Under the pieces are notes generated by a model. The model worked only from the letters and a program-made list of their open reading frames with translations. It was not told the DNA's origin and ran no database searches. 52,521 bases of DNA. Source: Macrostomum lignano (lineage: Eukaryota). How positions within the stretch are numbered: the first letter of the stretch is position 1; every line of letters starts with the position of its first letter. The stretch is from positions 1-52,521 of the forward strand of contig NIVC01002368.1 of assembly GCA_002269645.1 (NCBI GenBank), given 5' to 3'. A program made the translations under genes and the position numbers. Shown here piece by piece: positions 4,201 to 52,521 of this stretch.

Positions 4201-5945
4201 AAAGTACAGTTGTTAGCAATTATCGGACTGCGCAAATATTGACCGATATGTATCGAAAATATTTATTACTTATTAATCGGTAATTTAAGCCGATGTGTAT
4301 CGAAGAAATTTATCACTGGTCGGTACTCTTAAGCCGATATTTATCAAAGATATTTACCGCTAATCGGTTATTCTTAAAGCCGATATGTATTGAAATCTTT
4401 ATTACTATCGGTTATTTCAAGCAGATATGTATCGAAAACACTAATTACTATCGTCAAGTTTAGACCGATATGTATCGAAATTAATTATAACAAACGAAGA
4501 ACAGCACTCACATTAGTGCCAATAATAAGCGGCATTGGCACTCGCAGATCATCCGGCAATTCCCGAACACTTTCGCCTTCTTTAAGGGATCGACGCCTTT
4601 GCAGCGAACGGATTTTATCGCGCCGTTCGTGCAAAGCTCGACGCTCCTCGGCGAAGAAGGCCGGCGAACAGCGGCGCGGTTTGCCAAGCAGTTTGCGAAT
4701 CAGCGACCACTGCGCTCTGGTTAAGCGCCTGGTGCGCAATAGCGGGAAAGTTTCGCGTAGACAATTTTGAAAATCGTTCGGCCCAAGGAAGAGCGGCCGG
4801 TCTAGGTTAGAATAGAACCATTCGTAGAACACCCATCGGTGCGCCTTGGGCAGCTTCAGCATGTTCTTCAGGTGGGTGGCGTTCATAGCGCAGGTGTTCC
4901 TCTGCTCGCTAGGATAGAGCTGATGCTGCTGCTGCAGCTGGTGATGATGATGCTGGCGTTGAAGATGACGCTGTTGCTGATGATGCTGGTGCAACTGATG
5001 GGCCTGTTGCTGCTGCTGTGGCAAGCCAAAGCCCTGGCCGCTATCGAGCTGTTGACGAACTTTAGCCTGCGCGTGTATTTTTGGTTGCAAATTTAATAAA
5101 TTGGTTACCCCTTTCTTTTGAAGTTCGATGCTGTCTAATTTTTAACTCTTATTTTAACTATATTAACTATATCTATATTAACTTTCTCTCTTAAAGTCTC
5201 TTTATCCGGCCCTCGGGTTCTTTAAAACTAGACAATATCAATCCGGCCTGCTCAAGGTTTGACTCTTTTTAGCTCATTCTCCGAATCCCTCTCTCTTCTT
5301 TGTCCTCTCTTGCCTCAGAAGTGTAAATGATAGGGTGAAGATTTTTCTATTTACGCATTGTGTGGTTCTGATGCTTAAAATACAGTAAAACAGGTAAATC
5401 ACCTTGTTCAATTTGGCAGGCTTGGCCTGCTTTCGCTCTTTCACGCTGGTCGCACCGGCAGAGGCATCGGCGCCGCCGAAAGAGCTCTGCATACGGAGGA
5501 ACACCTGCGCCTCGGGTCCGTAGTCGTACAGGGTGTCATCATTCTGATAAGCGGCCGCGGCTTCAGCTCGACCTGAGGACCGGCCACTGCCAGATTGGCG
5601 CTCCTTCAATTGTTTCTGCTGCTTTTTTGACAAGCGCGACTGTTGCTGCTGCTTCTGCACTTGCTGCTGTTGCTGTTGTTCCGCCGCTTTTTGCTGCTTT
5701 TTCTTTTTCTTTGAAGTGGCAGCAGTGGCAGCGGCAGCAGCGGCGGTGGCGGCTGGAGCGCCAGTCTTGGCAGCCAATTTCTTGTGCTTGGCAAGTTTGG
5801 CCAATTTAGCCTGAAGCTTATCGAACTGCTGCTGCTGCTGGCGCTGCTTCTGTCTGGCGCTGCTGCTGGATTTGCTGCGCGTTGACGCGCCAACTGTGGC
5901 TGAATGGCCGGAGCCAGCGACGAATTCTTCATAGCCAGTTTCCAT
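1289..5945 (-). CDS. lin-9: LIN-9 (DREAM/MuvB subunit), 5 exons: 5945-5403, 5066-4512, 3913-3458, 2854-2435, 1462-1289; ~715 aa
   Basis: DIRP domain (LKLPKAHRWVFYEWFYSNLDRPLF...LLGKPRRCSPAFFAEER), Tudor-like part (DGLYAGVVDAID...SIPDYEV), coiled coil and C-terminal SFFENTVEVHL match animal LIN9. All junctions are GT-AG, phase 0, and join in frame. The exon-2 acceptor is the least certain. Confidence 0.93.
1600..2275. repeat. 20/21-bp minisatellite (TCTTGGTGAGCGCCCCTGTC)n in lin-9 intron 4
   Basis: Tandem copies read directly. Confidence 0.95.
2960..3420. repeat. 24-bp minisatellite (CTTAGCGACCTTCCAGAATGCACT)n in lin-9 intron 3
   Basis: About 17 near-identical copies. Confidence 0.97.
4140..4480. 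repeat. Degenerate repeat built on CCGATATGTATCG; related copies at ~795-945
   Basis: The motif recurs about every 30-45 bp. Confidence 0.75.
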
Positions 5946-11239: not shown

Positions 11240-12196
11240 ACTACTACCAAGTGGGGGGGGGATTTCCCCTGACAATTTTTTTGCTGCGCATTGGAGCAAC
11301 GCAGGCACACGAAATTCAAGAAAACGGGCTAACTTTTGTTGCGCACCTTCTCAAACAAGGATCAAGTTGCCAGCCCTCCAGACCGTTGAGATATTCGACG
11401 ATTCTGCCAGAAGGTCGGATTTTCCCATAAGCGCCAGTGTATTCAGTACACCCCTGTGCGCCAATCAGCACTGCGCCTCAGTGCAGCCTTCCCAAGTCTC
11501 CAAATTTCAACAGCACGTCGACCACATGTGTCTGCATCAGCATTGACTTCGTTGGTCATTGGCCTTTACCCAGGCGGAGCTTCTGGACCTTCAACAGGTG
11601 GCTCCAGGTGACTATGGACACCCTGATGCGAATTTCTCTAGTTGTGGGACGATGTAGCCAACAAGTTACTTACTGTGCGATATCGTACCTAAGAAGATGT
11701 GCAACAGATGTGACCATCAGAGTACCACAGGTGCCACCTGTTGGAGGTGCCGACGGCGTCGTGGTGATGACTGAATGCTTGAGAGACTAGCTGAGGATGT
11801 CCAGCAGTGGCGGCTAGCCCACTGTCGAGGCTTGATGGGCGAAACTAGACCAATACGCATCAGGGTGTCCTGAGTCCCCTGCTGCTACCTGTTGAAGGTC
11901 CAGAAGCTCCGCCTGGGTGAGGGCTAGTGACCAACGAAGTCACAGCTGATGCAGATACATCTGGTCGATGATTGGCGCACAGGGGTGTACTGAATACACT
12001 GGCGCTTATGGGAAAATCCGACCTTCTGGCAGAATCGTCGAATATCTCAACGGTCTGGAGGGCTGGCGACCTGATTCTTGTTTGAGAAGGTGCGCAACAA
12101 AAGTTGGCCCATGTTCTTGAAAAGTTGGCCTGCGTTGCTCCAATATGGCGCAGCAAAAAAATTGTCAGGGGGAATTCCCCCCCCCCTCTTGGTAGT
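11240..12196. mobile_element. Foldback/MITE-like element: ~230-bp inverted arms (11240-11470 / 11965-12196) plus an inner inverted pair (~11568-11645 / ~11835-11915)
   Basis: ACTACCAAG-G-run-ATT..CCCCTGACAATTTTT at left has its reverse complement at right, and both arms translate to the same peptide. No TSD found. Confidence 0.6.
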
Positions 12197-12770
12197 TCGA
12201 CGGGCGGAAAATGGCTTGGTGTTCTTACTGTTAATATCTTTATATATTCCCTGTGCATGTAGGGGAATTACTGCTCTAGCCTGCTGCCTTGTAGTAAAAT
12301 TATTGTCTGGTTACTGTATTGTATTGGTACATGTAGTACATCTTCGCTTTTACATGTGCACGCGCAGTTAGAGAAAAGCAGCTATACAGAGAAGTGTGCA
12401 TGCAAGCATGTGTACTAAGAACGCACATGTTGATCACGAAATGTAAACTTTCAATCACACACACGCCTGTCTAGCGGTATATAGTTTGCTTCCGCAGAAA
12501 AATTATCTCTGCAAAAGGCAAGGCGTGAAAGACAGAGTTAATAAGCCTGCTGTAAGTTAGTTCGGTTGTAATGTATCTGCAGGCAGTTTAATAGTGTAGA
12601 TGCATTAAAAGCGCGTTGTCAGAGAGCCTCCGCAAGAACTACACACGAGCTAATGGCGTCGGCTTTGCCAAGATTTTCCTGCGATGTAAAGGTGACTAAA
12701 CGGGCCGACTGAAGTATCGTAAGAACTCAAATAAATTTCCTCTCACCTGCTGTTAGAGAAATCCCCCACC

Positions 12771-13298
12771 TTGAATCAGGAACTATCCCAGCTAGCTGTT
12801 CAAGGCGAGATCAGCCTTGTTCGTCGTTTCGCTACCGCGGACCTGGTGAAAACTGTGGACGATGACAAAGGCTGGACAGTTCTCATGCTGGTAGCGACAG
12901 CTGACACCTGCAATGAGACGCCTGTATCGACAACAAAGTGCATCGAGTACTTTCTATTTCAAGGCGCTGATCCGATGTCGAGAGACGAGGAATCTGGCGA
13001 CACGGCAGCTCACCTGGCGGCCAGGCGCAACCAGCTGCGACTGCTGGCGCTGCTGCCGTTCGACTCCAAGTGGCTGCTGAATTGGCGAGGCGCCACTCCG
13101 CTGATGGAGGCTGCGCTGTCTGGCAGTCGTGACTGCGCCAAGCACCTGCTGCATCTGTTGCGTCTGAAAAAATGGAATCAGAAAAGCAATGACAAACGAT
13201 TGAGACTGCTGGAATTGAAGGATAGTGAAGGTCGCAGTGCTTTGGATATTGCTAAAAGCAGCGGGCACCACGACTTGGCTAGGCTTATCGAACGGTGA
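12771..13298 (+). CDS. Ankyrin-repeat exon/ORF A (about 4 repeats); start not resolved; ends at a probable phase-2 donor CG|GTGAG
   Basis: GWTVLMLVA, GDTAAHLAARRN, GATPLMEAALSG and GRSALDIA ankyrin motifs. Confidence 0.8.
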   Translation: MNQELSQLAVQGEISLVRRFATADLVKTVDDDKGWTVLMLVATADTCNETPVSTTKCIEYFLFQGADPMSRDEESGDTAAHLAARRNQLRLLALLPFDSKWLLNWRGATPLMEAALSGSRDCAKHLLHLLRLKKWNQKSNDKRLRLLELKDSEGRSALDIAKSSGHHDLARLIER

Positions 13299-13519
13299 GA
13301 CTCAAGCTGAGTGCCCTAAAATATAGCCAGGATTTGTACATTTTAGGAAGAGATGGAGACTTTGATCCTTGAACTTGAAGTCAGGATCAGAGTGGAGATT
13401 TAATGCAAACCAGAAGTATCACTGGCACTAAGAAGAATAAAGAAGAAGTACAGAAGACTGCAGAAAATTGTATGGTAGGGACTAATGTTACGTGCAGGAC
13501 CATGAGAAACGCAAGAAGC

Positions 13520-13990
13520 TGTTGAGAGGCCTGCAGAAGCATCAGGGTTGAAGTTCCTGCAGAAGCATCAGGGTTGGAGTTCCTGCAGAAGCATCAGGGC
13601 TGGAGTTCATGCAGAAGCATCAGGGTTGGAGTTCATGCAGAAGCATCAGGGTTGAAGTTCCTGCAGAAGCATCAGGGCTGGAGTTCCTGCAGAAGCATCA
13701 GGGCTGGAGTTCCTGCAGAAGCATCAGGGTTGGAGTTCATGCAGAAGCATCAGGGTTGGAGTTCCTGTAGAAGCATCAGGGTTGGAGTTCCTGCAGAAGC
13801 ATCAGGGCTGGAGTTCCTGCAGAAGCATCAGGGCTGGAGTTCCTGCAGAAGCATCAGGGCTGGAGTTCCTGCAGAAGCATCAGGGTTGGAGTTCCTGCAG
13901 AAGCATCAGGGCTGGAGTTCCTGCAGAAGCATCAGGGTTGGAGTTCCTGCAGAAGCATCAGGGTTGGAGTTCCTTCAGAAGCATCAGGGT
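13520..13990. repeat. 24-bp minisatellite (CTGCAGAAGCATCAGGGYTGGAGTT-type)
   Basis: Tandem copies read directly. Confidence 0.95.
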
Positions 13991-14282
13991 AATAGGTTAA
14001 TTTTACGTGCACAACCATCCGAAACACAAGAGACATCCGGGTAGGAGTGGCTGAAGAAGCATCAGGATCGCTCATAAGTATATTTTTTTATTCTGACAAC
14101 TGAAATATAGCTTGTAAATTTATTTTAAAACCGAATTTTGCATCAGCGAGCAGCGACTCAGTCTAGGCGGGCTTGGTTCTATCTGCGGTCAGACTGAATC
14201 GGTGAGTGAATCGTGATTTTTATCGAGGATTAACGACTCCTGCCTGTGCTATGAATAAATACAATACTACTGATGCTATACT

Positions 14283-18453
<4,171 letters not shown>

Positions 18454-27510: not shown

Positions 27511-28548
27511 TCATCTGAGCAAACTTCGCACTCGGGTGAGCTCGGGCTTGGAGGAGGCTGCGGCCGGCTGCACCCTGGCCGGCTCTCTCGGCAGCCTCAG
27601 CAGCGAGACGGAAGTGCTGCGACTGCGGCTGCGACTGCGACTCTGGCCACCGAGCCGAGTGACAGCTCGAACCACAGCCTCCCGGATGCGGCTGAGACTG
27701 CGCGGTCTCGGCCGACGATGAAGCTTCTGACAAGGAGGCTGGGCTTCGGCTTCATCTGCATCGGCAGCTGCATCCGGGATGTCCGGGGCGGAGCGGATGA
27801 GGAGGGCGACGCCGCGGTTGAGACGAGCGGCGGTCTCGGCGGAGTCGGCAGTCGCTGCGCCGTACAGGCAGGGGCCGAGGCAGGTGGCCAGACTAGCCGA
27901 GTCCATCCGGTTGCCATGGCAACCAGCAGCGGCCAGCCGGTGCAGCAGCAGGCACAGCAGGCGCAGCGCCCTGGCCGAGCAGCCTCCGTTGCCGCCGAGA
28001 TTCGCCGCCGCCACCGCCCTGAGGGCCGACAGTCGCTGCTGAGCGTCGCCGTCGCGGTCTTCGCCAGCCGTCGTTGCAGCGCCGGCCAAAGCCTCGGCGG
28101 TTGCAGCCGGCAGCAGCGGCCGCGGCAGCTGCCTTAGCCAGGCCTTCAACGTGGAACAAACGTCCTGCGGCGGCGTGTCAGCCGGGATGTCGCAGCTCCG
28201 GTCGGCGTCCAGCCTGGCGCGCAGCAGCAGCAGCCGCGGCCGGGCGCCCTCCACCCGGAACAGGCCCTCGGCTGACTGCGCCGCCTCCGAGGACAGGAAG
28301 CGGCAGCTGGCGGCCAGCAGGCTTGGCACCGGGCCAAATCCGGCCACCACCGTCTGCGGCTGGTCACGCAGCGCCCTGCCGAAATGGAGGCCGATGCTAC
28401 CGCCGCTGCTGTCGCCGCTTCTCTTGAGCAGCAGCAAGGATGTCAGCGACTTGCCAGCGGCTCGGCAGCTGCGGAAGCTCCGCCTGACGCTCGGCGCTGC
28501 TGTCTGTCGATGCCGACGCAGCTCTCGTTCAGCCAGACGACTGCACAT
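27511..28548 (-). CDS. RhoGAP-domain protein (ARHGAP11-like); gene ends not resolved
   Basis: EGLFRVEG with the arginine finger, DVCSTLKAWLRQLPRPLLP and NRMDSASLATCLGPCL. Confidence 0.88.
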   Translation of the reverse strand: MCSRLAERELRRHRQTAAPSVRRSFRSCRAAGKSLTSLLLLKRSGDSSGGSIGLHFGRALRDQPQTVVAGFGPVPSLLAASCRFLSSEAAQSAEGLFRVEGARPRLLLLRARLDADRSCDIPADTPPQDVCSTLKAWLRQLPRPLLPAATAEALAGAATTAGEDRDGDAQQRLSALRAVAAANLGGNGGCSARALRLLCLLLHRLAAAGCHGNRMDSASLATCLGPCLYGAATADSAETAARLNRGVALLIRSAPDIPDAAADADEAEAQPPCQKLHRRPRPRSLSRIREAVVRAVTRLGGQSRSRSRSRSTSVSLLRLPREPARVQPAAASSKPELTRVRSLLR

Positions 28549-28845
28549 GATGACTGATTATGATATGGTTTAATATGAAAATATCAATAATATTTAATAG
28601 TTGTTTCTAATTCCATGTAGAGTGGATTGTGTCTGCTTTTTATAAGCCTTGATCGGATTGGGGGGGTGAGTGAACGAGATCAATTCTCACACCTTGGTTT
28701 ATATAACTTTCGCACCTCGAACTTGAGCTCAGCCAATTAGAAGGCGGGACGCGGGTTGGTGGCTTGAGTATCCGTTGGAATAACTGAAGCGTTATGAGAT
28801 GTGCGAAATTATTGCGGCTGTAGAACTGGTTTTACAGATTAAAAT

Positions 28846-39030: not shown

Positions 39031-39047
39031 GTACTTGCTTCGGCAGT

Positions 39048-39087
<40 letters not shown>

Positions 39088-39137
39088 GGCCCCTGCGCAA
39101 GGATGACACGCAAATTCGTGAAGCGTTCCATATTTTT
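39031..39137 (+). ncRNA. U6: U6 snRNA
   Basis: GTACTTGCTTCGGCAGTAC 5' stem, ACAGAGA box, AGC triad, T-run terminator; TATA about 30 bp upstream (39002-39009). Confidence 0.97.
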
Positions 39138-39359: not shown

Positions 39360-40988
39360 ATTTTGGCGCCGCAGGCACTAATTTTAGCGCCACAGGCACT
39401 CATTTTGGCGCTGCAGGCACTCATTTTGGCGCCACAAGCACTCATTTTAGCGCAGCAGGCAACCATTTTAGCGCCGCAGGCACTCATTTTAGCGCCGCAG
39501 GCACTCATTTTAGCGCCGCAAGCACTCATTTTGGCGCCTCAAGCACTCATTTTAGCGCCGCAAGCACTCATTTTAGCGCCGCAAGCACTCATTTTGGCGC
39601 CGCAGACACTCATTTTGGCGCCGCAGGCACTCATTTTAGCGCCGCAGGCACCTATTTGAGCACCGCACGCACCATTTTAGCGCCACAGGCACTCATTTTG
39701 GCGCCGCAGGCACTAATTTTAGCGCCACAGGCACTCATTTTGGCGCTGCAGGCACTCATTTTGGCGCCGCAAGCACTCATTTTAGCGCAGCAGGCAACCA
39801 TTTTAGCGCCACAGGCACTCATTTTAGCGCCACAGGCACTCATTTTGGCGCCACAAGCACTCATTTTGGCGCCGCAGGCACTCATTTTGGCGCCTCAAGC
39901 ACTCATTTTAGCGCCGCAAGCACTCATTTTAGCGCCGCAAGCACTCATTTTGGCGCCGCAGACACTCATTTTGGCGCCGCAGGCACTCATTTTAGCGCCG
40001 CAGGCACCTATTTGAGCACCGCACGCACCATTTTAGCGCCGCAGGCACTCATTTTGGCGCCGCAGGCACTCATTTTAGCGCCACAGGCACTCATTTTAGC
40101 GCAGCAGGCACTCATTTTAGCGCCGCAAGCACTCATTTTAGCGCCGCAGGCACTCATTTTATCGCCGCAGGGACTTATTTTAGCGCCACAGGCACTCATT
40201 TTAGCGCCGCAGGCACTCATTTTAGCGCCGCAGGCACTCATTTTAGCGCCGCAGGCACTCATTTTAGCGCCGCAGGCACTCATTTTAGCGCCGCAGGCAC
40301 TCATTTTAGCGCCGCAGAAACTCATTTTATCGCCGCAGGGACTTATTTTAGCGCCACAGGCACTCATTTTAGCGCCGCAGGCACTCATTTTAGCGCCACA
40401 GGCACTCATTTTAGCGCAACAGGCACTCATTTTAGCGCCGCAGGCACTAATTTTAGCGCCGCAGGCACTCATTTTAGCGCCACAGGCACTCATTTTAGCG
40501 CTGCAAGCACTCATTTTGGCGCCTCAAGCACTCATTTTAGCGCAGCAGGCAACCATTTTAGCGCCACAGGCACTCATTTTAGCGCCGCAGGCACTTATTT
40601 TGGCGCCACAAGCACTCATTTTATCGCCGCAGGCACCTATTTGAGCACCGCACGCACCATTTTAGCGCCGCAGGCACTCATTTTGGCGCCGCAGGCACTC
40701 ATTTTAGCGCCACAGGCACTCATTTTAGCGCAGCAGGCACTCATTTTAGCGCCGCAGGCACTCATTTTATCGCCGCAGGGACTTATTTTAGCGCCACAGG
40801 CACTCATTTTAGCGCCGCAGGCACTCATTTTAGCGCCGCAGGCACTCATTTTAGCGCCGCAGGCACTCATTTTAGCGCCGCAGGCACTCATTTTAGCGCC
40901 ACAGGCACTCATTTTAGCGCAGCAGGCACTCATTTTAGCGCCGCAGGCACTCATTTTAGCGCCGCAGACACTCATTTTATCGCCGCAG
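39360..40988. repeat. 21-bp satellite (TTTT[A/G]GCGCCGCAGGCACTCA)n with higher-order blocks
   Basis: About 75 copies; the marker CCTATTTGAGCACCGCACGCACC recurs at ~39650, 40007 and 40636. Confidence 0.97.
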
Positions 40989-42470
40989 ACTACTAAGCAA
41001 CGGCAGATGGCTTGATTTTGGAGGTGAGGTGGGTGTCAACCCTCCTCGCCTCTCATTGGCTGGCGCCCCGATCACTAGGTGATCGATACCCGTATCGATA
41101 TCGGCGCTCGGCGCGCGCGCGCCGCAGGCGCGTGGCGCCAAGCGCCGTCCAGCCGCAGGCGACCCTCCCCAGCCACCGGCGACCCTCCCCAGCCGCAGGC
41201 GCACCTACCGATATGTATGCCCACCCTACCGATATGTACCCCGATATGTACACCCTCCCGAGCCGCAGGCGCACCCTCCCGAGCCGTAGGCGCCCATGCC
41301 GCAGACGCCCATGCCGCAGGCACCCCGAGTGTACACTCTACCGAGCCGCAGGCACCCCGAGTGTACACTCTACCGATATGTACACTCTACCACTCTCCCG
41401 ATATGTAGTCAACGATATTAGGCTAGTGAAAACTACTTATAGTAGGTGAAATTGAGTATATTTACATAAAAATGTAGATAAAACATATTGGTAGGTGAAT
41501 AATGACGCATATTGCATATTGGAGCATATGAGCAGCAAAAAACACACAATGTAGGTGTATGGGCAGAAATAGACAAAGCAGGTACTGTAGGCGCTACATA
41601 GGTGGAAATACACACACAGCAGGTGCATACATACACACAATGTAGGTGCAAATTGAGTATAATACAGGAAAATTACATAGCATATAATGTAGGCGCATTT
41701 TAAACGATACATTTTGCATATTAACCCGCAGGCACAAATTTCAGTGCATAGGATAAAATACACACACTGGAAGTTAAGTATAATACAACATATGTATGCA
41801 AAATTAAGCATATAATGTAGGTGCAAAGTAAAATATCCAGCCCAGGATATTCGAGACACGCCCCCAGAGTCAGGGCCGGGGGATCCCAATGTACAGTGCG
41901 GGCGGAGTAACAGAGAAATTCCTCCCCAGGGCCGGGGGATCCCAAGTACAGTGCGGTCAGAGAGGAGTAACATAGAGAAATTCCTCCCCAGGGCCGGGGG
42001 ATCCCAAGTACAGTTCAGGCAGAGAGCATTCCAATCCTCCCCAAATGGGGGGGTTATCAAAGACCCCTCACATTGCACAGGGCGGGCAGAATAACAGACC
42101 GCATACAAATAGGGGTTTTAGCGGATCCCAAGTACAGTGCGCTCCATGGTGTTAAATGAGGAAGGATCCCGCCCCAATGTACATTGGAGGTAGAGTAACA
42201 GACCGCATACAAAGAGAATTCCAGTCAAACTTTACCGCAGCTCCCACCCCAAATGAGGGTTTTAGTGGATCCCCAGAGGGTAGCTCTCCAAGTTGAGGGA
42301 TCCCCCCAGTGTGTTGCGAGGCCCAAGTACAGTGCATGCAGAGAGTAACAGAGTACAAAGAGAAATTCCCTTATCAGTCAAACTCGAGCGCGATCTTCAG
42401 CCAGGGCAGTCTCCTCCTCATCAGCGCTCTCGAAACATCTGTCAAAGTAAAAATATTCAATGTAGACAGA
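40989..42470 (-). mobile_element. Outer Polinton-like element, terminal part (TIR from 40989; resumes at 51750 after the nested insertion)
   Basis: ACTACTAAGCAACGGCAGATGGCTTGATTTTGG terminus and ~650 bp homologous to the inner TIR. Last exon CFESADEEETALAEDRARV* is homologous to the inner CFESVEEEAAYETALRERMEID*. Confidence 0.85.
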
Positions 42471-43380
42471 ACTACTAAGGACTGGCAGATGTGTTGATTT
42501 TGGGAGGGGGGTGGGTGTCAACCCTCCTCGCCTCTCATTGGCTGGCGCCCCGATCACTAGGTGATCGATACCCGTATCGATATCGGCGCTCGGCGCGCGC
42601 GCGCGCCGCAGGCGCGTGGCGCCAAGCGCCGTCCAGCCGCAGGCGACCCTCCCCAGCCGCAGGCGACCCTCCCCAGCCGCAGGCGACCCTCCCCAGCCGC
42701 AGGCGCACCTACCGATATGTATGCTCACCCTACCGACATGTACCCCGATATGTACACCCTCCCGAGCCGCAGGCGACCTTCCCCAGCCGCAGGCGCCCAT
42801 GCCGCAGACGCCCATGCCGCAGGCACCCCGAGTGTACACTCTACCGAGCCGCAGGCACCCCGAGTGTACACTCTACCGATATGTACACTCTACCACTCTC
42901 CCGATATGTAGTCAACGATATTAGGCTAGTGAAAACTACTTATAGTAGGTGAAATTGAGTATATTTACATAAAAATGTAGATAAAACATATTGGTAGGTG
43001 AATAATGACGCATATTGCATATTAAAATGTACATATTGGAGCATATGAGCAGCAAAAACACACAATGTAGGTGCATGGGCAGAAATAGACAAAGCAGGTA
43101 CTGTAGGCGCTACATAGGTGGAAATACACACAGCAGGTTTACAAAGTGTACTTTCGATACATATCGGATTAATGTATAAAGCAGGTTTACAAGGCATGCA
43201 TAAGGTGTAGTTGTATAATACAGGCACGCATGTATAATCAGATTATAGGCAAACGCCCAGGTGCAATTTCAACAGACGCGTAAATAATGTCACACCGACT
43301 AAAGAGTAAATATTGTCTAACCCGCAGGTGCATAAATATTTTAAACAAAAGCGGTTCGGGGAAATCCCAAAAGGGAGGTT
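42471..43380 (+). repeat. Left TIR (910 bp)
   Basis: Reverse complement of 50844-51743; identity ends at ...AAAGGGAGGTT. Confidence 0.95.
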
Positions 43381-43740
43381 CACGGCCTAATGACCCGATA
43401 TACTTTCAACACAATTAAACCCACAAGTGGGCTAGAAAAATGGACAACGTATTTCGATTGCGCTATCAGTACGCTAATCAGCGCAGCAAGTTTATGTCAG
43501 GAGTTCTACTCCAAGAGGCGGACCGCTGGGCCACAAACCGCCCCGAGGGAATAGGTGTCAAATGGGAGTTTTAACACTTGAGGGGATCCCGCTCAATGTA
43601 CAGTGGAGGTGCCAAATGAGTAGGGACCCCTAAGTACAGTGCGGGCGTAAAACCATTTTCATCCCCACGAGTCAAGGGATCCCAAGTGGGCGCATAGGGG
43701 AATCCCAGGCGTAAAAAAAAGATAGATCCTTATCTTTCAC

Positions 43741-46700
43741 TCACTCCCGAAAGCCATACGGGCGGCTAGCGGCCCCATACACCCTCTTAGTCATTACGCG
43801 CTGGAAAGTCTTGTCCATCTCGAGGGTCCGGATTGTACAGCTAGCCTTATCGCGCCTGAACTGGGCCTGGGGCAGGCGTACAGTCCCGCCGTGACGCAGA
43901 ATTTCCTGCAGCTCGTCCTCGCGCTCGGAAATCTCGGGCGTGACTCTGATGCCCTTGCACTTGAGTACCGAGTACAGCGACCTGTCGGGCTTCTCCACCA
44001 CGTACCGGTAGAGCTTGGGGCCTCCCGTGGTGAACTGTACCATGCGGCAGCCGGCAGGTACCTCGTCAGTCCACTGCCCCAAACTCGAACCGCCCGGAGG
44101 CTCGTACTCGCCCGGGGAGCAGCGGTATACGACCCTGGGAGGAGGAGAAGGATAAAAAAGTGTTAAGGGGAGAAAGAGAGACAGAGACAGTGAAAAAATT
44201 ACTTACGAATCGGTATCGGCGTAAATGACGCGGGTTCCTAGACCCTCCAGAGCCTCGTAGAGTCGCAGCCGGGCGTGGGAGGTGGTGAAAACGCCAATAG
44301 GTACATTAGCGTACTTGAACGCCCGCTCGCCAGCACCGCCAAATCGGGGCTTGTACTCGAGCATCATGAAGCTCTCCCCAATTGGCTCGCACGACTTGAC
44401 CTTGATCGAGGGGTCTGTCAGGCGCTGCAGCCACGCCTCGTAGCTGTCCACAATCTCTGTGGAGGTCAGGTCGTCGCGCTGGCAGAACTTGCCCCAGAGC
44501 CTGCAGGGGAAAAATAAATTTTTTTTGTAAGTAGAAAAACATGGTCCCCACTGCAAGTAGAAAAACTTACGAGTTTAGAAAAATCTTGGCAACAAAGCGC
44601 AGGCCAGGATTTTCTTCCACCTTTTCCAGCCGGACGCCTTCGCGCTCGAAAAAGCTGGCCATGTAGGCAGCCTTGGCGTCCTCAGCCATCCCCGGCGAAC
44701 CGCTAGACTCGGCTTTGAGCTTCAAAAAAGTGTTTACATAATCTGCAAACAGACCCGTGCGAGTCTCGGTCCAATAGGCCAGGGCATGAACTGACTGCAG
44801 CTTGTAACCCAACTGCAGGGCCTTGTGGAGCTCTGGGGTCGACCACGTGCCGCGGAGCATTCTCTCAGCGTCAGTGTGTGTACACTCGCTGCTGCACTGG
44901 GTCTCCATGCAGACGCGGCAGAGGCCGAAAACCAGCTTCTTGTTAATCTTGGCGGGCAGTAGCGGGATGTGGAGATTGGTTGGCGGCAGAATCGACACCT
45001 CGGCGATGCCAAAATACCGGGCCAGCTGCAGCTCATCCAGTAGATGAGGCTCGGGGTGGTGTACCGGGTGCCCGACAGGGTACTTGTCAAACTTGTTGAC
45101 AGTCGGGTAGAGCGACACCTAGGGGATAAGGATAATAGAGAATTAGAGGATAAGATAAACTCAAACGCATGTCAACTGTGTGTGTACAAGTGTACAAACT
45201 TACCACATCCCGATAGCGCAGCTCTACAGTCTCGGTGGCCTCGGCGTGCGGGACAAAAGCCTCGGTACGGCCGCCAAACAGGGCATCCTCCAGGCGGATA
45301 GGCTGCTGGACTGGCGCTCCCTCGTCCTGATAGTCGTGCTCCCACAGAACACGCACATTGTATGCAGTGGAGAGCAGCCGGGTGAAGCGCTCAGTCTCCT
45401 CATAAATCGCCCGCATTGGCTGGTTCTTGAGCGGGTGCAGCACGTCGCCGTTGGGGAAGCACTTGGGACAGCCATGGTAGAAGCAGCCATGAAACTGCAG
45501 CACTGTCCTGGTCTCTGGGTCGAAGCCGTCGACCTTACGGCCCATGGCGAAAGCCTCGCCGCCCGAGTCCGCTGTCCGCAACCGGCCGCCAAACTCGGTT
45601 GCATTCAAATGCGCAAGCCAGCACCGCGCCTTGTGCGACTGTACATCGGACCGGCGGGAAATCACCCCAAGAGTGTTGGGCTCCATAAACTTGGTGGTGA
45701 AAACAGCCATAGCCAAGCCCGCAATGGTGTTGGATTGGACAAATGCGTCCAGTCCGCAAATGTCCTTAATCAGGCGGGTGTACTTTAGACAGCCTTCCCG
45801 CAAAATTAACGTGTCCTGCAGGCAGTAGTCCAGGTACTCCTTATTGAAATTAAACACCTGTCCCTCCTGCTTGGCCAGCCAGTCTGCGATGGAGTCGTGC
45901 TGCTTGTTTTTCTTTCCTCCATACATATCAATTGAGCAGTAGGGTCCCACGTACCCCCAATTTTCCGGCTGGTTAAACACGTGCGGGAAATCTCCTTTGG
46001 TCAGTTGGGTGCCCAAACCAAGCGCCTTTGGGAATTGCGCCAGACCAATAGGGATGAAATTGAGGCTGTCCTTGAAGGTGATCTTGTCGCACTTCATACA
46101 TTAGGCGGCTGTTCTGGAAGATCACTTGCGGCTTCTTCTTGGCCAGTCCGTTGAGTAGGCGCCGAGCAGGAGGAATGCGTCATACGCAGAGCCATTGTGC
46201 GCAATAGCAATTGCCCCCTGCTTGAACACACTAGTCAGCCAGCAGTAAAAGGCATCGATAGAGTGCGGCCCGACAGATACAAACTCTCGCATCCCACAGG
46301 CACAGTCATTGTGCGAGACACAGCTCGTGAAATCGAGTGCCAAATCGCGTCCCGCAATGCAATTGGCTGAGCTGTGTAGTCCCCCGCACACGCTGCAGCG
46401 GGGCCTGGGGAAGAGTTTGGGACACGCCTCGCAGGAGGTGGCAGCCGTAACCAAGTGTACCCGGTGCTGCTTGCCAGAGTCCACGTACGTCTCGAAATCA
46501 TAGTAAACATACGGGGCGCTAGACTCTTTGGCTTTGGCGGGGTGACAAAGCACTCGTGGGTGGCAGTTTCGTCGTACTGCTTGCAGACTGGGCACTTGGC
46601 ATAACCACACTGATGCTCAGGGGGCTGGCCTACTTTTAGTTCTTCTAGATAGCCACACGTGCCGCAAACGTGGACTGAATCACAGCGCGATCTGCCGGCC

Positions 46701-48628
46701 TTATTCTTGCGCTTGTGATTTTCTAGGCACTGAGCATTATAGCAATTTAGCCCGCAATCATGGCATCTTACATATGCGCGGTTTGCCTTACAGTTGGAGC
46801 CCGGAGTCTTGCATGTACTGCAGGCATCAGCGCACTTGTGCTTCTCATAATTGCAGTCGTAGGCCATCTCGCACTTGGGGCAGTAGTGATCGGAGCCGAA
46901 AAACGCAGGCAGCTTGGTGACCACATTAAAGTGCTGCTCGACCAGGTGTAGGTGCAGAATCTCGGTGCCAGGCAGGTTGAAGATGCACCTGTTGGCCTCC
47001 TCTGCGCGGTACACGCGTACACCAAAATCGTGCCCTGGATGCAGCCGGTTCAGGGCTCGGATCGCTTCGGGCAGTGCATCCACCCCGAAAGGACCGGCCT
47101 GCGAGACGATTTGATGAGTCTGTGTAGGGGGTAAAATATTTCTTTTAGTATTCCCTGATACTGTGTAAAAAATCTTATCAGAAAATATATCTTTTAGTAT
47201 TCCATGATACTGTGTAAAAATCTTATCAGAAAATATATCTTTTAGTATTCCATGATACTGTGTAAAAATTCTTATCAGAAAATATATCTTTTAGTATTCC
47301 ACGATACTGTGTAAAAATTCTTATCAGAAAATATTTTTTAGTATTCCACGATACTGTGTAAAAATTCTTATCAGAAAAATACTAGAAACTTACCGTGTAG
47401 AGGCCAGCTTCGATTTGTAGCTCAGTCGCAAGCTTAGTCTGCTTGGACGAATTGGCCTTGATTGTACGCCACACCTGCATGGTGATGGACTTGGCCACGA
47501 ATTGCAGGTAGGCGCAGGCCACGACCAGAGCGCGCAGCAGGCATCTCTTGTCCGAGTTGGTGATGCGGACATAGTGCTTGGAGAAGGCGTGCCGCTCTTC
47601 TAGATGCTTGTTCTCGAGAGCACATCCACCTCGAGGCACCCAGGCCTTTAGCAACCGGATAGAAAAGTTGCCCGTCAGGACAGTGGCATCCGACTGTACA
47701 ATCTTGTTGATGTGCTTAAACAACAATTCAGCCGTCATGCGGGATGCACGCACCGGGGGAGTGTGGGCCGCTTTGAGCATATTGTCGCTCTCGAATTTCG
47801 CGGCCATAAAGTCATCACCAGCCAAATCTTGCTTGAAAACTTCGAGCATGTCAGCAAACACCTCCCGCAAATCTTCGGTGTTGGTAATATGCACCACATA
47901 CTCGACACCCTTTGCCCTAAACTTGGGCAGGTCACGCTGATTATCCAGCCGGGCCGTAAAACCTGCATGGGGGGAATGGGGGAGTGTGAGTCAGCTAGGG
48001 TCTGTGTGGGAAATGGGGGGCTGGATAACTCACCCGGTCCGGTAACAGATTCCGGCTGTGTTGGCGGGACAAACGCGTCTGAAAAAACACAAGGAGATAA
48101 AAAACCAGAAGAATCTGTCATTTTCCTGGCCCCAGCGTGTTTCCCCGCCCTAGCCCCAGCAATTTCTTAACAGAGTTTACTCTGCTGTCCCCGCAGCAAC
48201 TCTCTGCAATTTCTTATCTGCACCCCCGCTGCAGCCTGTCGCAGCAGTCTTTGTTTACTCACCCCTGCAACTCTCTGTCGCAGCAATTTGCACCCCAGCT
48301 GCAGCCTGTCTGGACAACACCCCCCTAGCAGCAATTTCTTATCAGCACACACCCGGCTGAAACTTGTCTAGCCCTCCCCTGCAACTCTCTGTTACAGACC
48401 CTGCCGCAGCACCCCACCCTAGCAACTCCAGTCTAGACCCCTGCAGCTGTCGCAGCAGTCTTTGTTGTTTACTCTGCGGTCCCACAGACCCTGCAGCTGC
48501 TGCTGCTGCTCAGCCCCTACCCCCACCCTAGCAACTACAGTCTAGACAGAAATTAATTAAAACTTACCATAAAGACGTTGCCTCTTGTCAGCCAGGAAAG
48601 CAGTTGCTGCGGCGCTGCGTTTAGCCAT
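43741..48628 (-). CDS. pPolB: Protein-primed family-B DNA polymerase, 7 exons (48628-48568, 48078-48034, 47962-47394, 47119-45204, 45118-44571, 44500-44207, 44134-43741), ~1,275 aa; 3 frameshifts in exon 4
   Basis: Exo I YDFET, Exo II AHNGSAYD, KDSLNF, Exo III YCLQD, Vsr-like insert VDGFD...FHGCFYHGCPKC, FGGRTE, motif A YRDV|VSLYP, motif B KIFLNS|LWGKF, motif C YADTDS|V, GPKLY and KCKG. Every junction is GT-AG and phase-compatible. Confidence 0.95.
47136..47385. repeat. ~55-60-bp tandem repeat in pPolB intron 3
   Basis: TTTTAGTATTCCAYGATACTGTGTAAAAATTCTTATCAGAAAAT repeated 4-5 times. Confidence 0.9.
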
Positions 48629-48659
48629 TTTGCAAACAGAGAGCGTGAGAGAGCGGAGA

Positions 48660-48867
48660 GAGAAGGATTTATCTCTCTACCCTGGCTCTGGGGGTCTGTA
48701 TATATACTAAAAAATCTGCTCAGCTCGCCTGTTATTGGATAAATCGCCAAAAACCAACCAAAATCATCAAAAATCACCCCAAAATCATCACCCACCCCAC
48801 CCTCCATCCGGGGGTATATAAGGCGCTGCACGGCTGTCAGAGAGCTCTCTGCTGCTGCTGCTAAATC
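48660..48867. promoter_or_regulatory. Compact bidirectional promoter with TATA boxes at 48699-48706 (pPolB) and 48815-48821 (PC4-like)
   Basis: Each TATA lies 50-70 bp from a divergent ATG; the region is conserved in the outer element (52330-52521). Confidence 0.7.
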
Positions 48868-49400
48868 ATGTCTTCTATCTCTCTATACGAAAACTTTGTG
48901 GCGCGGAAGCCCACATTTGAAACTGAACACAACTTGATTGAAATTCGGCGTCTCTACACCAACGAGGCCGGAGTGTGGAAGGACGGCTTCCCTGCAATCT
49001 ACTTGGCCGAGCCAGAGTGGAAGAAGCTCGAAGCTGCGCGCCCTGACCTGGAGGCTGCTGCCCGCCTTCACGTGAACAAGCGGGTCCTGTTGGGCAATTT
49101 CAAGGCAGTTGAAGCTTCGCGAGGGAGGATCCGTTTGCTGCGCAATTGGCTCAATCAGGACCCAAAGTTTAATTGGCGCTACACGATCGAATTCACGCCT
49201 GAACTGTGGCGCCGGATGTTTGCCGCCCGTTTGGACAAGCTCTTCAAGCCGGCACCTGAGGCACCCCTCCAGCCAAGCGAGTCAAGACAGACACGCCTCC
49301 GGTAGCCGGGACTGAGGTGGATGTTCTTCAGCTCATGGGTCTCAAACCCTACCAATCTCCACCCTGGGAAAATCTGTTTAACGAGGGTTGGGACTGCTAG
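48868..49400 (+). CDS. Tandem PC4/Sub1-like putative ssDNA-binding protein; as written it stops at 49305, with +1 C at ~49265 it ends ...PPPAKRVK...WENLFNEGWDC* at 49400
   Basis: IEIRRLYTNEAGVWKDGFPAIYLAEPEWKKL aligns by eye with PC4 [31 protein letters not shown]. A second unit follows (VLLGNFKAV...RYTIEFTPELWRRM). The outer copy has 5 C where this copy has 4. Confidence 0.6.
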
Positions 49401-49516
49401 TTTCCTATTGGTTCGCACCGCCTCACTCGATCCGTCTATATAATTAGTGTTTCCCCCCTCTCCAGAGAGTCAAACCCTATCTCAGCTCTAATACTTTACT
49501 CTCTGTTGATTCTAGC

Positions 49517-50530
49517 ATGTCCCGCCGAGCTCTATCCAACCTCTGGGATAATAATCGCCCGACTGAAGAGTTAACCAGCCTCGACGGGGATATCCCTGAA
49601 CACATAGTTCCCCTAGGCACTGAAAACAACGGAAGTGATAATTGGGAGGCTGATCAATATCTAGCTTGGGCTATGTCCTATGATAGCGACACCGAGTCTG
49701 AAGTTTTTGACCTCCCGCTGCTGGCTATCGGCGGGGTTGTGAACGGTGCCCCTGCTGCTACTGCCTCCGATTTGACTACCGCCTCAGCCGCCCTCTTTGA
49801 CGTCTCTGTTGAGGAGCTGACCACAACCGGCCCTGCCTCTGCTGCGCCCGTCTCTGCTGCTGCCGCCTCTACTACGCCCGTCTCTGCTGCTGCTTCAACT
49901 ACCTCCCACCGGGCCTCAATATCATCAGCCGCTACGCTCCTTCTCTTCGACGACGAGGACGAGGATATGTCTGAGGAGATCGCCGTGGTTCGTGAGCGCT
50001 TTCCTCGCATTGTGGCCTCATTTTTCCGCGGGGACATTGACTGGCTGAGGTCTCGGCATCCTGGCGGGCTGCCCTCCCAAGCTACCTTTGTCAGAGCCTT
50101 TAATCGGGTTCTTGATACTTTGGTTGCGAGGGGTGCCGGCCTACGGGAGGTGTTGGAGGCTGAGACTCTGCACCAGGACTGGTTGATGGGGCGCAATTCG
50201 TATGCCCCGACTCTGAGGCGTACCTGGCCGGTCCGGGAGCGCGGCCAACTGCGTGGGATGAGCCCGCCGCATGGCCCTCCAACTGGGAGGAGCACCTTTC
50301 GTTGGTGCGCTATACAGCGTCTCTACGTCTGTGGCGGCTGGAGGACGATTTAGATTTGGTAAGATATTACATTATATACACAACTCATCTAATCATATAC
50401 CTTGCATATATTCTATCTACATTGACTGTTATAATTTCCACATTGCCAGTCATCCGACTACTGCTTCGAGAGCGTGGAGGAAGAGGCCGCGTACGAGACA
50501 GCCCTGAGGGAGCGTATGGAGATTGACTGA
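49517..50530 (+). CDS. ORF3, orphan (acidic/low-complexity N-half, helical C-half); probable intron 50359-50449 and last exon 50450-50530; one frameshift near 50170-50280
   Basis: 278-aa ORF. TTG|GTAAGA donor and TTGCCAG| acceptor give ...EDDLDL|SSDYCFESVEEE...ID*; both sites have counterparts in the outer element. Confidence 0.6.
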
Positions 50531-50843
50531 TAAGGGTATTTCTCTTTGTACGCGGTTTGGGGAACCCAACACTGTACACTGGGTAGGTTAGAATGGGCGC
50601 TAGCTGGGGGGCCTCTATGTGTGTATACACGGGGGTTAAAAGACCAATTCTGATAGCTCGCTCCTAGGGAGGAAATTGGCAGAGGGGCCGGCCCAAAAAA
50701 CTGAAATGGGCTGGCCCCGGGCTCGAGTCCACCCACCTAAAATATGGAGGTCATTACAACCTAATGACTCGAAATACTTTCAACGCAATTGTACCTATAA
50801 GAGGGTTAGGGCGGCGGCGGCGGTGGCGAAAACGGGCGGCTAA

Positions 50844-51743
50844 AACCTCCCTTTTGGGATTTCCCCGAACCGCTTTTGTTTAAAATTTTTATGCACCTGC
50901 GGGTTAGACAATATTTACTCTTTAGTCGGTGTGACATTATTTACGCGTCTGTTGCACCTGGGCGTTTGCCTATAATCTGATTATACATGCGTGCCTGTAT
51001 TATACAACTACACCTTATGCATGCCTTGTAAACCTGCTTTATACATTAATCCGATATGTATCGAAAGTACACTTTGTAAACCTGCTGTGTGTATTTCCAC
51101 CTATGTAGCGCCTACAGTACCTGCTTTGTCTATTTCTGCCCATACACCTACATTGTGTGTTTTTGCTGCTCATATGCTCCAATATGTACATTTTAATATG
51201 CAATATGCGTCATTATTCACCTACCAATATGTTTTATCTACATTTTTATGTAAATATACTCAATTTCACCTACTATAAGTAGTTTTCACTAGCCTAATAT
51301 CGTTGACTACATATCGGGAGAGTGGTAGAGTGTACATATCGGTAGAGTGTACCTGGGCTCGGTAGAGTGTACACTCGGGGTGCCTGCGGCTCGGTAGAGT
51401 GTACACTCGGGGTGCCTGCGGCATGGGCGTCTGCGGCATGGGCGCCTACGGCTCGGGAGGGTGCGCCTGCGGCTCGGGAGGGTGTACATATCGGGGTACA
51501 TGTCGGTAGGGTGAGCATACATATCGGGTGCGTGCGCCTGCGGCTGGGAGGGTCGCCGCGGCTGGGGAGGGTCGCCTGCGGCTGGACGGCGCTTGGCGCC
51601 ACGCGCCTGCGGCGCGCGCGCGCCGAGCGCCGATATCGATACGGGTATCGATCACCTAGTGATCGGGGCGCCAGCCAATGAGAGGCGAGGAGGGTTGACA
51701 CCCACCCCCTCCAAAATCAACACATCTGCCAGTCCATAGTAGT
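50844..51743 (-). repeat. Right TIR (900 bp)
   Basis: Ends ...AGTCCATAGTAGT, followed by the TSD. Confidence 0.95.
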
Positions 51744-51749
51744 GACAGA

Positions 51750-52521
51750 TTATATGTAATTATACGATTTATATGAAATTAAGCTTACCAAAATCGGGTT
51801 CGCGCTGTACGGATACGGCACGCCTCAATTAGCAACCCTCGTCAAACAGATTTCCCAAGGGTAGGGTTGATGCTGTCAAGGCAGTCCTGCAGATTGTCCT
51901 CTGTCTTGACTCGCTTGGCTGGAGGGGGTGCCTCAGGTGCCGGCTTGAAGAGCTTGTCCAAACGGGCGCAAACATCCGGCGCCACAGTTCAGGCTTGAAT
52001 TCGATCGTGTAGCGCCAATTAAACTTTGGGTCCTGATTGAGCCAATTGCGCAGCAAACGGATCCTCCCTCGCGAAGCTTCAACTGCCTTGAAATTGCCCA
52101 ACAGGACCCGCTTGTTCAGTGAAGGCGGGCAGCAGCCTCCAGGTCAGGCGCGCAGCTTCGAGCTTCTTCACTCTGGCTCGGCCAAGTAGATTGCAGGGAA
52201 GCGTCCTTCCACACTCCGGCCTCGTTGGTGTAGAGACGCCCGAATTTCAATCAAGTTGTGTTCAGTTTCAAATGTGGGCTTCCGCGCCACAAAGTTTTCG
52301 TATAGAGAGATAGAAGACATGATTTAGCAGCAGCAGCAGAGAGCTCTTCTGACAGCCGTGCAGCGCCTTATATACCCCGGATGGAGGGTGGGGTGGGTGA
52401 TGGATTTTGGGGTGATTTTTGATGATTTTGGTTGGTTTGGCGATTGACAATAACAGGCGAGCTGAGCAGATTTTTTAGTATATATACAGACCCCCAGAGC
52501 CAGGGTAGAGAGATAAATCCT
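51750..52521 (-). mobile_element. Continuation of the outer element: PC4-like gene copy (~52321-51829, many 1-nt deletions), promoter, ORF3 largely absent
   Basis: Reverse-complement match to 48660-49390; then ~40 bp to a GTAAG donor at ~51787. Confidence 0.9.

Follow-up and report, generated by a model that had tools for sequence, protein, structure and literature searches.

Polintons, or Mavericks (Polintoviricetes), are the nearest known group to the element described here; they include adintoviruses with a pfam03175 'Alpha' PolB and a VSR-containing pPolB2 subgroup. In their available text, the Polinton papers describe one-piece genomes, and the surveys demand that a polymerase and an integrase, or five Polinton genes, fall inside a 20-kb span (10.1101/2024.01.15.575659; 10.1101/2023.08.22.554363). 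Because screens of this kind would drop both halves of the present system as fragments, other split Polintons may be going unnoticed. This work presents an element of the flatworm Macrostomum lignano that, taken alone, has the pPolB, terminal inverted repeats (TIRs), and 6-bp target-site duplication (TSD) of a Polinton and lacks the integrase, capsids, ATPase, protease, and 13- to 25-kb length. Because complementary halves of the gene set lie on separate mobile elements with matching ends, we regard it as very probable that they form a split, bipartite Polinton, in which segment A (the studied element) would replicate both pieces and segment B would integrate and probably package them.

The window, i.e., the whole 52,521-nucleotide stretch of contig NIVC01002368.1 that was analyzed, holds the element at 42471..51743 (9,273 bp), with a 5'-ACTACT start at 42471 and an AGTAGT-3' end at 51743. 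The element and the older copy around it are delimited as follows.

40989..42470, no strand: left part of an outer segment A copy without ORF3, with its own TSD (CCGCAG), within a 20-bp satellite
42465..42470, no strand: left TSD, GACAGA, occurring once where the site is unoccupied in 4/4 siblings checked
42471..43380, plus strand: left TIR, starting ACTACTA
50844..51743, minus strand: right TIR
51744..51749, no strand: right TSD, GACAGA
51744..52521, minus strand: further part of the outer copy, comprising ORF2 and the promoter, truncated by the contig end

A preliminary description, made from the letters of the window, had reported intact ends, a perfect 6-bp TSD, and near-identical TIRs, and all of these hold. 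GACAGA stands on both flanks, and contigs from runs X4, X17, and X9 continue across the uninterrupted site. The TIRs (910 and 900 bp) are 93.7% identical over 931 columns, 52 of which are gap columns arising mainly from internal tandem repeats that differ in copy number. The first ∼30 bp of the left TIR are drawn from a pool of alleles common to segment B and to noncoding satellites. The second copy in the window had been called diverged; it is instead a sibling lacking ORF3, with 99.7% and 96.9% identity to locus L062 on its two sides and its other end visible in the duplicate locus L070, and it was the target into which the studied copy inserted in the opposite orientation. Segment A copies are 98 to 99.7% identical over 2.3 kb (14/14 comparisons). 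The studied element is one among many young copies of segment A.

The polymerase gene lies on the minus strand in seven exons, two of which match PF03175 (E value, 5e-13).

48568..48628, minus strand: exon 1, with its ATG at 48628
48034..48078, minus strand: exon 2 (45 nt), with joints in runs X11 and X17
47394..47962, minus strand: exon 3, putative terminal-protein domain and vOTU Cys motif, labeled from position and motif
45204..47119, minus strand: exon 4, putative vOTU His region, Cys-rich region, exonuclease motifs, and VSR-like insert
44571..45118, minus strand: exon 5 (PF03175), from the last part of motif A into the first part of motif B
44207..44500, minus strand: exon 6, from the last part of motif B through motif C (YADTDS)
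43741..44134, minus strand: exon 7, C-terminal part with the stop codon, placed by frame and GT-AG, its upstream intron inferred

Exo I to III and Pol A to C motifs are recognizable in these exons, as in a protein-primed family B polymerase. The domain labels of exon 4 are what we take them to be from motif inspection, PF03175 alone coming from a profile match. The vOTU and VSR labels were guided by the available text of two studies (PMC11071308; 10.1101/2023.08.22.554363). There are six introns in all, five seen as joints and the sixth inferred. The gene is apparently transcribed and spliced, since the five joints are present in X11 and X17, which were deemed RNA by guess (no run is catalogued as RNA, and contig depths were not used), and absent from X4 and X9. 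Both introns flanking exon 5 are skipped in X11 and X17, and the metagenome proteins P0078 and P0079 share the boundaries of this exon. Frame breaks at ∼46.1 to 46.5 kb interrupt exon 4 of the studied copy, and its ORF2 and ORF3 read shorter than in another copy; in both cases, these may be assembly errors or real lesions. None of the segment A exons scanned matched a helicase family.

To the right of the polymerase gene lie a promoter region and two further genes.

48629..48867, no strand: putative divergent promoter region of pPolB and ORF2, with TATA-like boxes
48868..49305, plus strand: ORF2, PC4-like, putative single-stranded-DNA-binding protein (SSB)
49517..50353, plus strand: ORF3, orphan accessory gene with an acidic, Ala/Thr/Ser-rich N-terminal half

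The promoter region weakly matches a stretch upstream of a 226-amino-acid gene of segment B (83% over 36 nt; E value, 0.004). For ORF2, the earlier reading as a putative SSB gains support from the ortholog in a second lineage, which passes PF02229 at 26.1 bits (cutoff, 25). ORF2 of the studied copy itself gave no Pfam PC4 match; its best protein-atlas matches are PC4 clusters at 0.88 to 0.89 (a lead only), and its single-sequence fold is unusable (pLDDT, 36.8). ORF3 is missing from five sibling copies and from lineage 2 and is dispensable. It has no usable match in the protein atlas or Pfam; a resemblance to UL116 was rejected as falling under the cutoff and being confined to the low-complexity part. 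The possibility that ORF3 might prove to be an integrase found no backing, as neither Pfam nor tblastn returned an integrase match. The element thus has the three genes originally listed and, as proposed, no integrase, capsid, ATPase, or protease: tblastn queries comprising 13 segment B proteins and 4 from a one-piece Polinton gave nothing better than an E value of 0.2.

The missing genes are found elsewhere in the same genome. The preliminary description had envisaged ACTACT-ended elements that carry integrase and capsid genes and lack pPolB, and segment B is such an element (∼10 kb, with the same ACTAC ends and 6-bp duplications). It encodes an rve integrase, a double-jelly-roll capsid, a penton-like protein, a protease-like protein, a putative ATPase, and a TBP-like protein, and no polymerase was found on it. 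The integrase matches PF00665 above the cutoff (E value, 1.8e-9), and a catalytic acidic triad (DDE) can be read in its sequence. By its predicted structure (pLDDT, 80.9), the capsid is a double jelly roll; Foldseek matches the model to the capsids of PBCV-1 (Vp54), Sputnik, and mavirus, with a best E value of 8.5e-18. The putative cysteine protease, with His/Asp/Cys motifs, would be adenain/Ulp1-like and the putative packaging ATPase, with Walker A/B motifs, A32-type; their Pfam matches are weak only, and they are 42% (ATPase) and 38% (protease) identical to open reading frames of a one-piece control Polinton. We take the minor capsid protein to be penton-like from its position and an N-terminal motif. 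Segments A and B together measure ∼19.8 kb, versus 9.3 kb for A alone. An 11.9-kb copy of B has a duplicated ATPase end and, again, no polymerase.

The two segments are separate throughout the genome. B proteins were found at 0/23 fetched A loci and A proteins in 0/11 B elements, and at least 63 B loci all lie more than 25 kb from every one of the 110 matching pPolB loci, the closest pair being 47.7 kb apart. Among the best 98 of 451 capsid candidates, which were those scored, a distant capsid gene does lie ∼9 kb from an intronless pPolB at three control loci (C4619, C4948, and C4976), and the one fetched has the gene order of B plus a polymerase. Because no locus among the 110 pPolB and at least 63 B loci joins a segment A pPolB to a segment B capsid module, the earlier option of a satellite of an autonomous Polinton is unsupported; the other option, one segment of a bipartite system, is favored by the ACTAC-ended integrase/capsid elements without pPolB. 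A 21-kb ACTACT-ended element on contig C106, considered as a one-piece parent, is really a noncoding palindrome carrying an unrelated inserted Polinton (12 kb, AGTAGT ended).

These data also bear on whether A and B arose through independent deletions in a ∼20-kb one-piece parent (unassembled, absent from the strain, or an exogenous virus) that mobilized them. Such a history would fit the size and content of A and B combined, which match a normal Polinton, as well as the integrase-less pPolB-plus-TIR remnants that the accessible part of one survey places at 10 Caenorhabditis elegans loci (10.1101/2024.01.15.575659), and scoring covered the best 98 of 451 capsid and the best 150 of 294 ATPase candidates. 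We nevertheless consider it very unlikely. No parent occurs among the loci above, A and B each have their own subterminal TIRs, and the same partition would be required twice, in lineages near synonymous saturation. Moreover, the near-identity of the 14 segment A comparisons means that any parent must have been active very recently, which counts against this origin.

When insertions of every class are counted, a perfect 6-bp TSD borders 30 of 31 distinct cases (from 35 rows; C1711 is the single mismatch), although the integrase is on B alone. Noncoding palindromic satellites of 7.7 to 8.9 kb share the ends and 6-bp TSDs of the coding segments, as do fold-back A2 derivatives. Derivatives of 4.4, 6.0, and 0.4 kb integrate too, so size is not absolute.

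Two diverged lineages show the A/B split, and the terminal motif is particular to each pair. Both terminal search patterns were derived from known ends, and the pairing concerns these two lineages only. The 18 paired ACTACTA-type elements comprise 6 A1, 4 B1, and 8 noncoding elements. The 22 paired ACTACGTA-type elements comprise 6 with the lineage 2 pPolB, 10 with the lineage 2 capsid, 6 in which neither was recognized (one of these is 14.4 kb long), and 0 with both. The A1 and A2 polymerases are monophyletic in a quick tree that carries a long-branch warning and was used solely for this point. Five alleles of positions 8 to 19 are common to A1 and B1, and terminal alleles are common to A, B, and the noncoding palindromic satellites. 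Beyond approximately position 27, B2 is closer to A1 than to A2, and terminal similarity is therefore not strictly pairwise. Where dS is finite, dN/dS is 0.04 to 0.30 (0.16 for pPolB exon 7), and all genes compared are judged to be under purifying selection. With pS at 0.57 to 0.86 on both segments, i.e., near saturation, the data are compatible with A and B having split at the same time, and nothing stronger follows.

The lineage comparison weighs on a one-way parasitism, in which B would be a virus without a polymerase of its own that relies for copying on host enzymes or on ordinary Polintons of the genome, while A would be a linear plasmid of the transpoviron type exploiting the integrase and capsid of B. 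A loci do outnumber B loci (110 versus at least 63), other pPolBs in the genome have open frames of >1,100 codons, and the accessory genes of A differ, lineage 1 having ORF3 and lineage 2 a dUTPase. Yet tips and alleles are common to A and B in both lineages, no replication protein is recognized on B (three of its open reading frames have no assignment), the sole ordinary Polinton with its ends read has AGTAGT rather than ACTAC tips, and the pPolB of A has, by motif, the VSR-like insert of capsid-bearing Polintons. We judge this relationship improbable. Selection speaks, in turn, to an intracellular two-component self-synthesizing transposon, with A and B supplying each other's missing functions in germ-line cells and a capsid module that is a relic or has another role. 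Coresidence in the germ line would make coinfection unnecessary, and no particle is known, just as particles of vertebrate Mavericks are unobserved according to the available text of PMC8097293. However, the capsid gene is the most constrained of those compared (dN/dS, 0.04), the ATPase has a value of 0.06, and the protease is 81% identical. This version, which retains the two-segment logic and differs in transmission alone, seems to us highly unlikely.

Under the bipartite Polinton model that we prefer, segment A would be one of two separately integrating linear DNAs of about 9 to 10.5 kb and would be transcribed by host RNA polymerase II. Its pPolB, with a putative terminal protein fused in front, may prime at the ACTAC ends of any linear A, B, or satellite molecule, and strand-displacement copying would proceed with the PC4-like protein as SSB. 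Any such linear molecule could then be inserted by the integrase of B. The capsid module of B probably packages the molecules, perhaps one segment per particle, a step that we favor by a small measure; noncoding palindromes with the same ends would be defective passengers.

The segments share terminal sequences and carry complementary genes, as the segments of a multipartite virus do. We lean, modestly, toward a segmented double-jelly-roll double-stranded DNA (dsDNA) animal virus, with independently packaged and integrated ∼10-kb replication and morphogenesis/integration genomes that swap terminal alleles, support defective palindromic satellites, and extend beyond one species. Other public assemblies contain relatives of the polymerase about the size of an exon and capsids with 80% identity, which would take the lineage beyond M. 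lignano. Scanning viral contigs gave no match with the capsid; with the polymerase, it gave two short VSR-region matches, neither of which had a further A or B protein in its vicinity. A metagenome scan using the capsid alignment gave no match, and six matches of a terminal-pattern scan, none with an A or B protein, were taken as chance. No segmented Polinton was found in the literature covered, Repbase, most subscription journals, and supplements being outside its scope. In this laboratory flatworm, the copies are young and the polymerase is spliced and apparently transcribed, which makes virion formation by Polintons and end recognition by pPolB and integrase accessible to observation and knockdown.

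Compared with Polintons, A and B jointly hold genes for pPolB, an rve integrase, a double-jelly-roll capsid, penton-like and PW/PZ-like proteins, and a putative protease and ATPase, together with TIRs and 6-bp TSDs, and B keeps the gene order seen in a one-piece Polinton from the same genome; the flatworm genes, however, are divided between two separately integrating elements. Intact vertebrate Mavericks are intronless, with (AGT)2, (AG)3, or (AC)3A tips in the available text, whereas the flatworm polymerase has six introns and the tips read 5'-ACTAC, extended to ACTACT in the studied element (PMC8097293). Bidnaviridae (Bombyx mori bidensovirus [BmBDV]) and Vesanto virus likewise have segmented linear genomes, matching termini, and a Polinton-derived pPolB, and BmBDV segments are in separate capsids (accessible portions of PMC4061559, PMC8502044, and PMC8363768). 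Unlike the flatworm pair, with its double-jelly-roll partner capsid, bidnaviruses are described in these portions as having single-stranded DNA, a parvovirus-type single-jelly-roll capsid, and the polymerase and major capsid on one segment, with no integrase described.

Noncoding palindromes and fold-back A2 derivatives resemble nonautonomous transposons and copy-back defective viral genomes, but A and B are coding and conserved, each lacks what the other supplies, and no autonomous master was found. Yeast linear killer/helper plasmids are cytoplasmic and nonintegrating, and each has its own polymerase. Pairs of the pGKL1/pGKL2 type resemble A and B as two pPolB-type replicons of 9 and 13 kb in a helper relationship but, in the available text, form no particles (PMC13348850). 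Transpovirons are likewise capsid-less linear replicons dependent on another virus, and Tlr1, like segment B, has integrase and capsid without a canonical pPolB; the available text gives these systems a pPolB-S1H helicase fusion, in contrast to the full, exonuclease-bearing pPolB of A (PMC11071308), whose partner is a polymerase-less Polinton half and not a giant virus. A capsid-less pPolB segment is a plausible living intermediate along the route proposed to lead from Polintons to linear plasmids and segmented bidnaviruses.

The element at 42471-51743 is best explained as the replication segment (A) of a bipartite Polinton whose integrase and capsid are carried on a separate segment (B). Its 9,273 bp begin with ACTACT at 42471 and end with AGTAGT at 51743; GACAGA stands at either side, and the TIRs (910 and 900 bp) are 93.7% identical. 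The insertion target was a sibling copy of segment A lacking ORF3, oppositely oriented, which starts at 40989 and runs to the contig end. Because the empty sites in the other ORF3-less copies checked (4/4) hold a single GACAGA, this sequence was doubled upon insertion, in keeping with the intact ends and perfect 6-bp target site duplication (TSD) of the preliminary description. Further complete segment-A copies were fetched from the genome: 14 with ORF3, 98-99.7% identical to the window across 2.3 kb, and 5 without it (counts of loci rather than events, some loci being one insertion present on two contigs). The element is real, young, and multi-copy, a family rather than a one-off. The neighboring copy, previously called diverged, does belong to this family but is not diverged, being the ORF3-less sibling that took the insertion. 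Segment-A copies cluster and nest within each other (window 40989-52521; contigs G000:C157, C471, and C513), and many flanks are tandem repeats, pointing to a possible integration preference; in the window, a 20-bp satellite (about 39360-40988) hosts the outer copy. The rest of the window contains the following.

Other features of the window
2369-5141, minus strand, LIN9-like host gene exons (DIRP, LIN9_C)
11250-12187, imperfect palindrome, 0.9 kb
12735-18450, plus strand, host gene exons with ankyrin repeats and protein kinase
about 14800-16300, long short-period tandem array
27514-28557, minus strand, RhoGAP host gene exons
39031-39137, U6 snRNA gene (RF00026, 118 bits)

The pPolB gene, on the minus strand, has about 1,276 codons in seven exons, separated by GT-AG introns. 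Contigs of sequencing runs X11 and X17 (two studies, guessed to be RNA) skip five of the introns, which are skipped in neither X4 nor X9; the sixth is a putative intron placed from the reading frame. Exon 4 is interrupted in the window copy and open in 7/23 sequences (22 fetched A loci plus the window). For ORF2, the ortholog from a second, diverged lineage scored above the PF02229 cut-off, which supports a putative PC4-like SSB gene. ORF3 had no recognisable relative in Pfam and protein atlas searches. When segment-B and one-piece Polinton proteins were used in tblastn, no trace of integrase, capsid, protease, or ATPase was found in the element, which is capsid-less and integrase-less as first described. 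UniRef entries matching at up to 100% identity carry the host label Macrostomum lignano.

Searching the genome with a terminal pattern of 21 nt yielded 49 matches (reversed-pattern control, 0). Among the elements this pattern bounds is class B (~10.3-10.5 kb, TIRs about 670 bp), so that ACTACT-ended elements with integrase and capsid but without pPolB, for which a search had been proposed, do occur. B encodes a Fic protein, two small ORFs, a 226-aa ORF, TBP-like, PW-like, and PZ-like proteins, an rve integrase (PF00665), a penton-like protein, a 114-aa ORF, a 427-aa capsid predicted to fold as a double jelly roll, and protease-like and ATPase-like proteins; PW, PZ, and penton are presumptive assignments, made in part from gene position.

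Further genes at fetched loci
L054:1130-1909, Fic/DOC protein (PF02661), B of lineage 1 (B1) only
L054:3442-3975, TBP-like ORF without its own ATG, possibly spliced, B1 and B2
L087:714-1172, dUTPase, accessory gene of lineage-2 A (A2)

A proteins had no match in 11/11 B elements (both ends seen for 8/11), and B proteins had none in 23/23 A loci. Genome-wide, among the candidates scored (135/135 from the exon-5 search, the best 98 of 451 for capsid, and the best 150 of 294 for ATPase), 0/63 B loci lay within 25 kb of any of the 110 pPolB loci that matched. With its matching ends, B supplies the counterpart anticipated when the element was proposed to be one segment of a bipartite system. In the one-piece Polinton control, three distant capsid genes are each separated from an intronless pPolB by about 9 kb, and the fetched control locus has B's order PW-PZ-integrase-capsid-protease plus a polymerase. 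Such one-piece organisation exists in this genome; given the count of 0/63 among the candidates scored, an unseen one-piece parent of A and B is very improbable. A one-piece Polinton at C4619 (L096/L097) has an intronless pPolB of 1,426 aa.

The bipartite reading extends to lineage 2, in which the partition of polymerase versus capsid and integrase is identical. A2 (9,859 bp) carries a pPolB whose exons are 56-73% identical to those of A1 and whose palm exons are split at the same positions, together with a PC4-like gene and the dUTPase; B2 (9,792 bp) has capsid and integrase at 88% and 82% identity. A2 and B2 start with ACTACGTA, and A1, B1, and a non-coding class with ACTACTA. Paired ACTACGTA elements (n=22) carried lineage-2 polymerase in 6 cases, lineage-2 capsid in 10, neither in 6, and both in 0; paired ACTACTA elements (n=18) were A1 (6), B1 (4), or non-coding (8). 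The A and B genes compared show purifying selection: wherever dS is finite, dN/dS between the lineages is 0.11-0.26 for A genes and 0.04-0.30 for B genes, and pS is 0.57-0.86 on both segments. Judged from sequence comparison, the split is old and maintained. Strict A/B pairing is countered by a B2 sub-terminal motif that matches A1 rather than A2, and by the two lineages providing only two pairings. We consider it likely that A and B depend on each other, and unlikely that the dependence runs one way, with A parasitising B.

TSDs were perfect in 30/31 distinct insertions, all classes being integrated. After the invariant ACTACTA, ends fall into discrete alleles, with 14 listed at positions 8-19 and 13 at positions 20-27 (63 ends; A1, B1, and non-coding, L031-L083); five position 8-19 alleles are common to A1 and B1. 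Alleles mix freely, and the two ends of a single copy can differ, a pattern suggestive of recombination at the ends of molecules that replicate together. Nearly whole-length non-coding palindromes (L052, L053, L058, L059, L065, L066, L060/L061, and L075), mostly 7.7-8.9 kb with arms up to 3.7 kb (99.9% identity), have ends as in A1 and B1 and perfect TSDs, and consist mostly of TIR modules of A type, interspersed with short stretches of B type. In lineage-2 A derivatives (G000:C3085, C4430 [6.0 kb], and L084 [4.4 kb]), the polymerase 3' end is duplicated in inverse orientation, as would be expected of fold-back replication products. An ordinary Polinton on C106 (L047:6893 to L049:2512; 12 kb, AGTAGT ends, truncated polymerase) is inserted into a palindrome with TSD CTAGCA.

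The general layout of pPolBs is TP-vOTU-exonuclease-palm, as outlined in PMC11071308. By analogy with known pPolB biology, A's polymerase would prime at ACTAC ends and replicate all three kinds of molecule (A, B, and satellites) by strand displacement, the displaced strands being bound by the PC4-like protein; the fold-back derivatives and long palindromes fit such copying. B's integrase would produce the 6-bp duplications of every class. Capsid and ATPase are strongly constrained, and most A, B, and non-coding elements measure 8-10.5 kb; together these suggest packaging of one segment per particle, though shorter derivatives are also present. A full multipartite virus is slightly favored, and an intracellular A/B pair without virions is extremely improbable.

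Among related proteins from other public assemblies, all on short contigs (up to 3.9 kb where given), P0078 and P0079 are polymerase pieces (61-66% identity) that start and stop exactly at the exon 5 borders, so the lineage with the spliced gene extends beyond this genome; P0001-P0003 are capsids at 80-81% identity, and P0074, P0076, and P0077 are PC4-like proteins at 31-38%. Among named relatives, the nearest are proteins from marine invertebrates and an insect, at about 30-34% identity. The capsids of B1 and B2 fall in one clade with three 80% relatives (support 100/100), and a quick polymerase tree places A1 with A2.

In the literature searched, we found neither a segmented Polinton nor any account of Polintons in Macrostomum lignano; the parts are known, and their organisation is without description there. 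The closest published observation is of C. elegans pPolB-plus-TIR loci without integrase, treated there as remnants (10.1101/2024.01.15.575659). Bidnaviruses (ssDNA) resemble A/B in segmentation with matched ends (PMC4061559, PMC8502044, PMC8363768), and yeast linear plasmids in forming helper pairs (PMC13348850). Taken alone, the element falls outside Polintons: it lacks an integrase and a capsid module, is 9 kb long, and has introns and ACTAC tips. A and B combined hold the Polinton gene inventory, its ATPase, protease, and minor capsid genes being putative, and the element works like half a Polinton.
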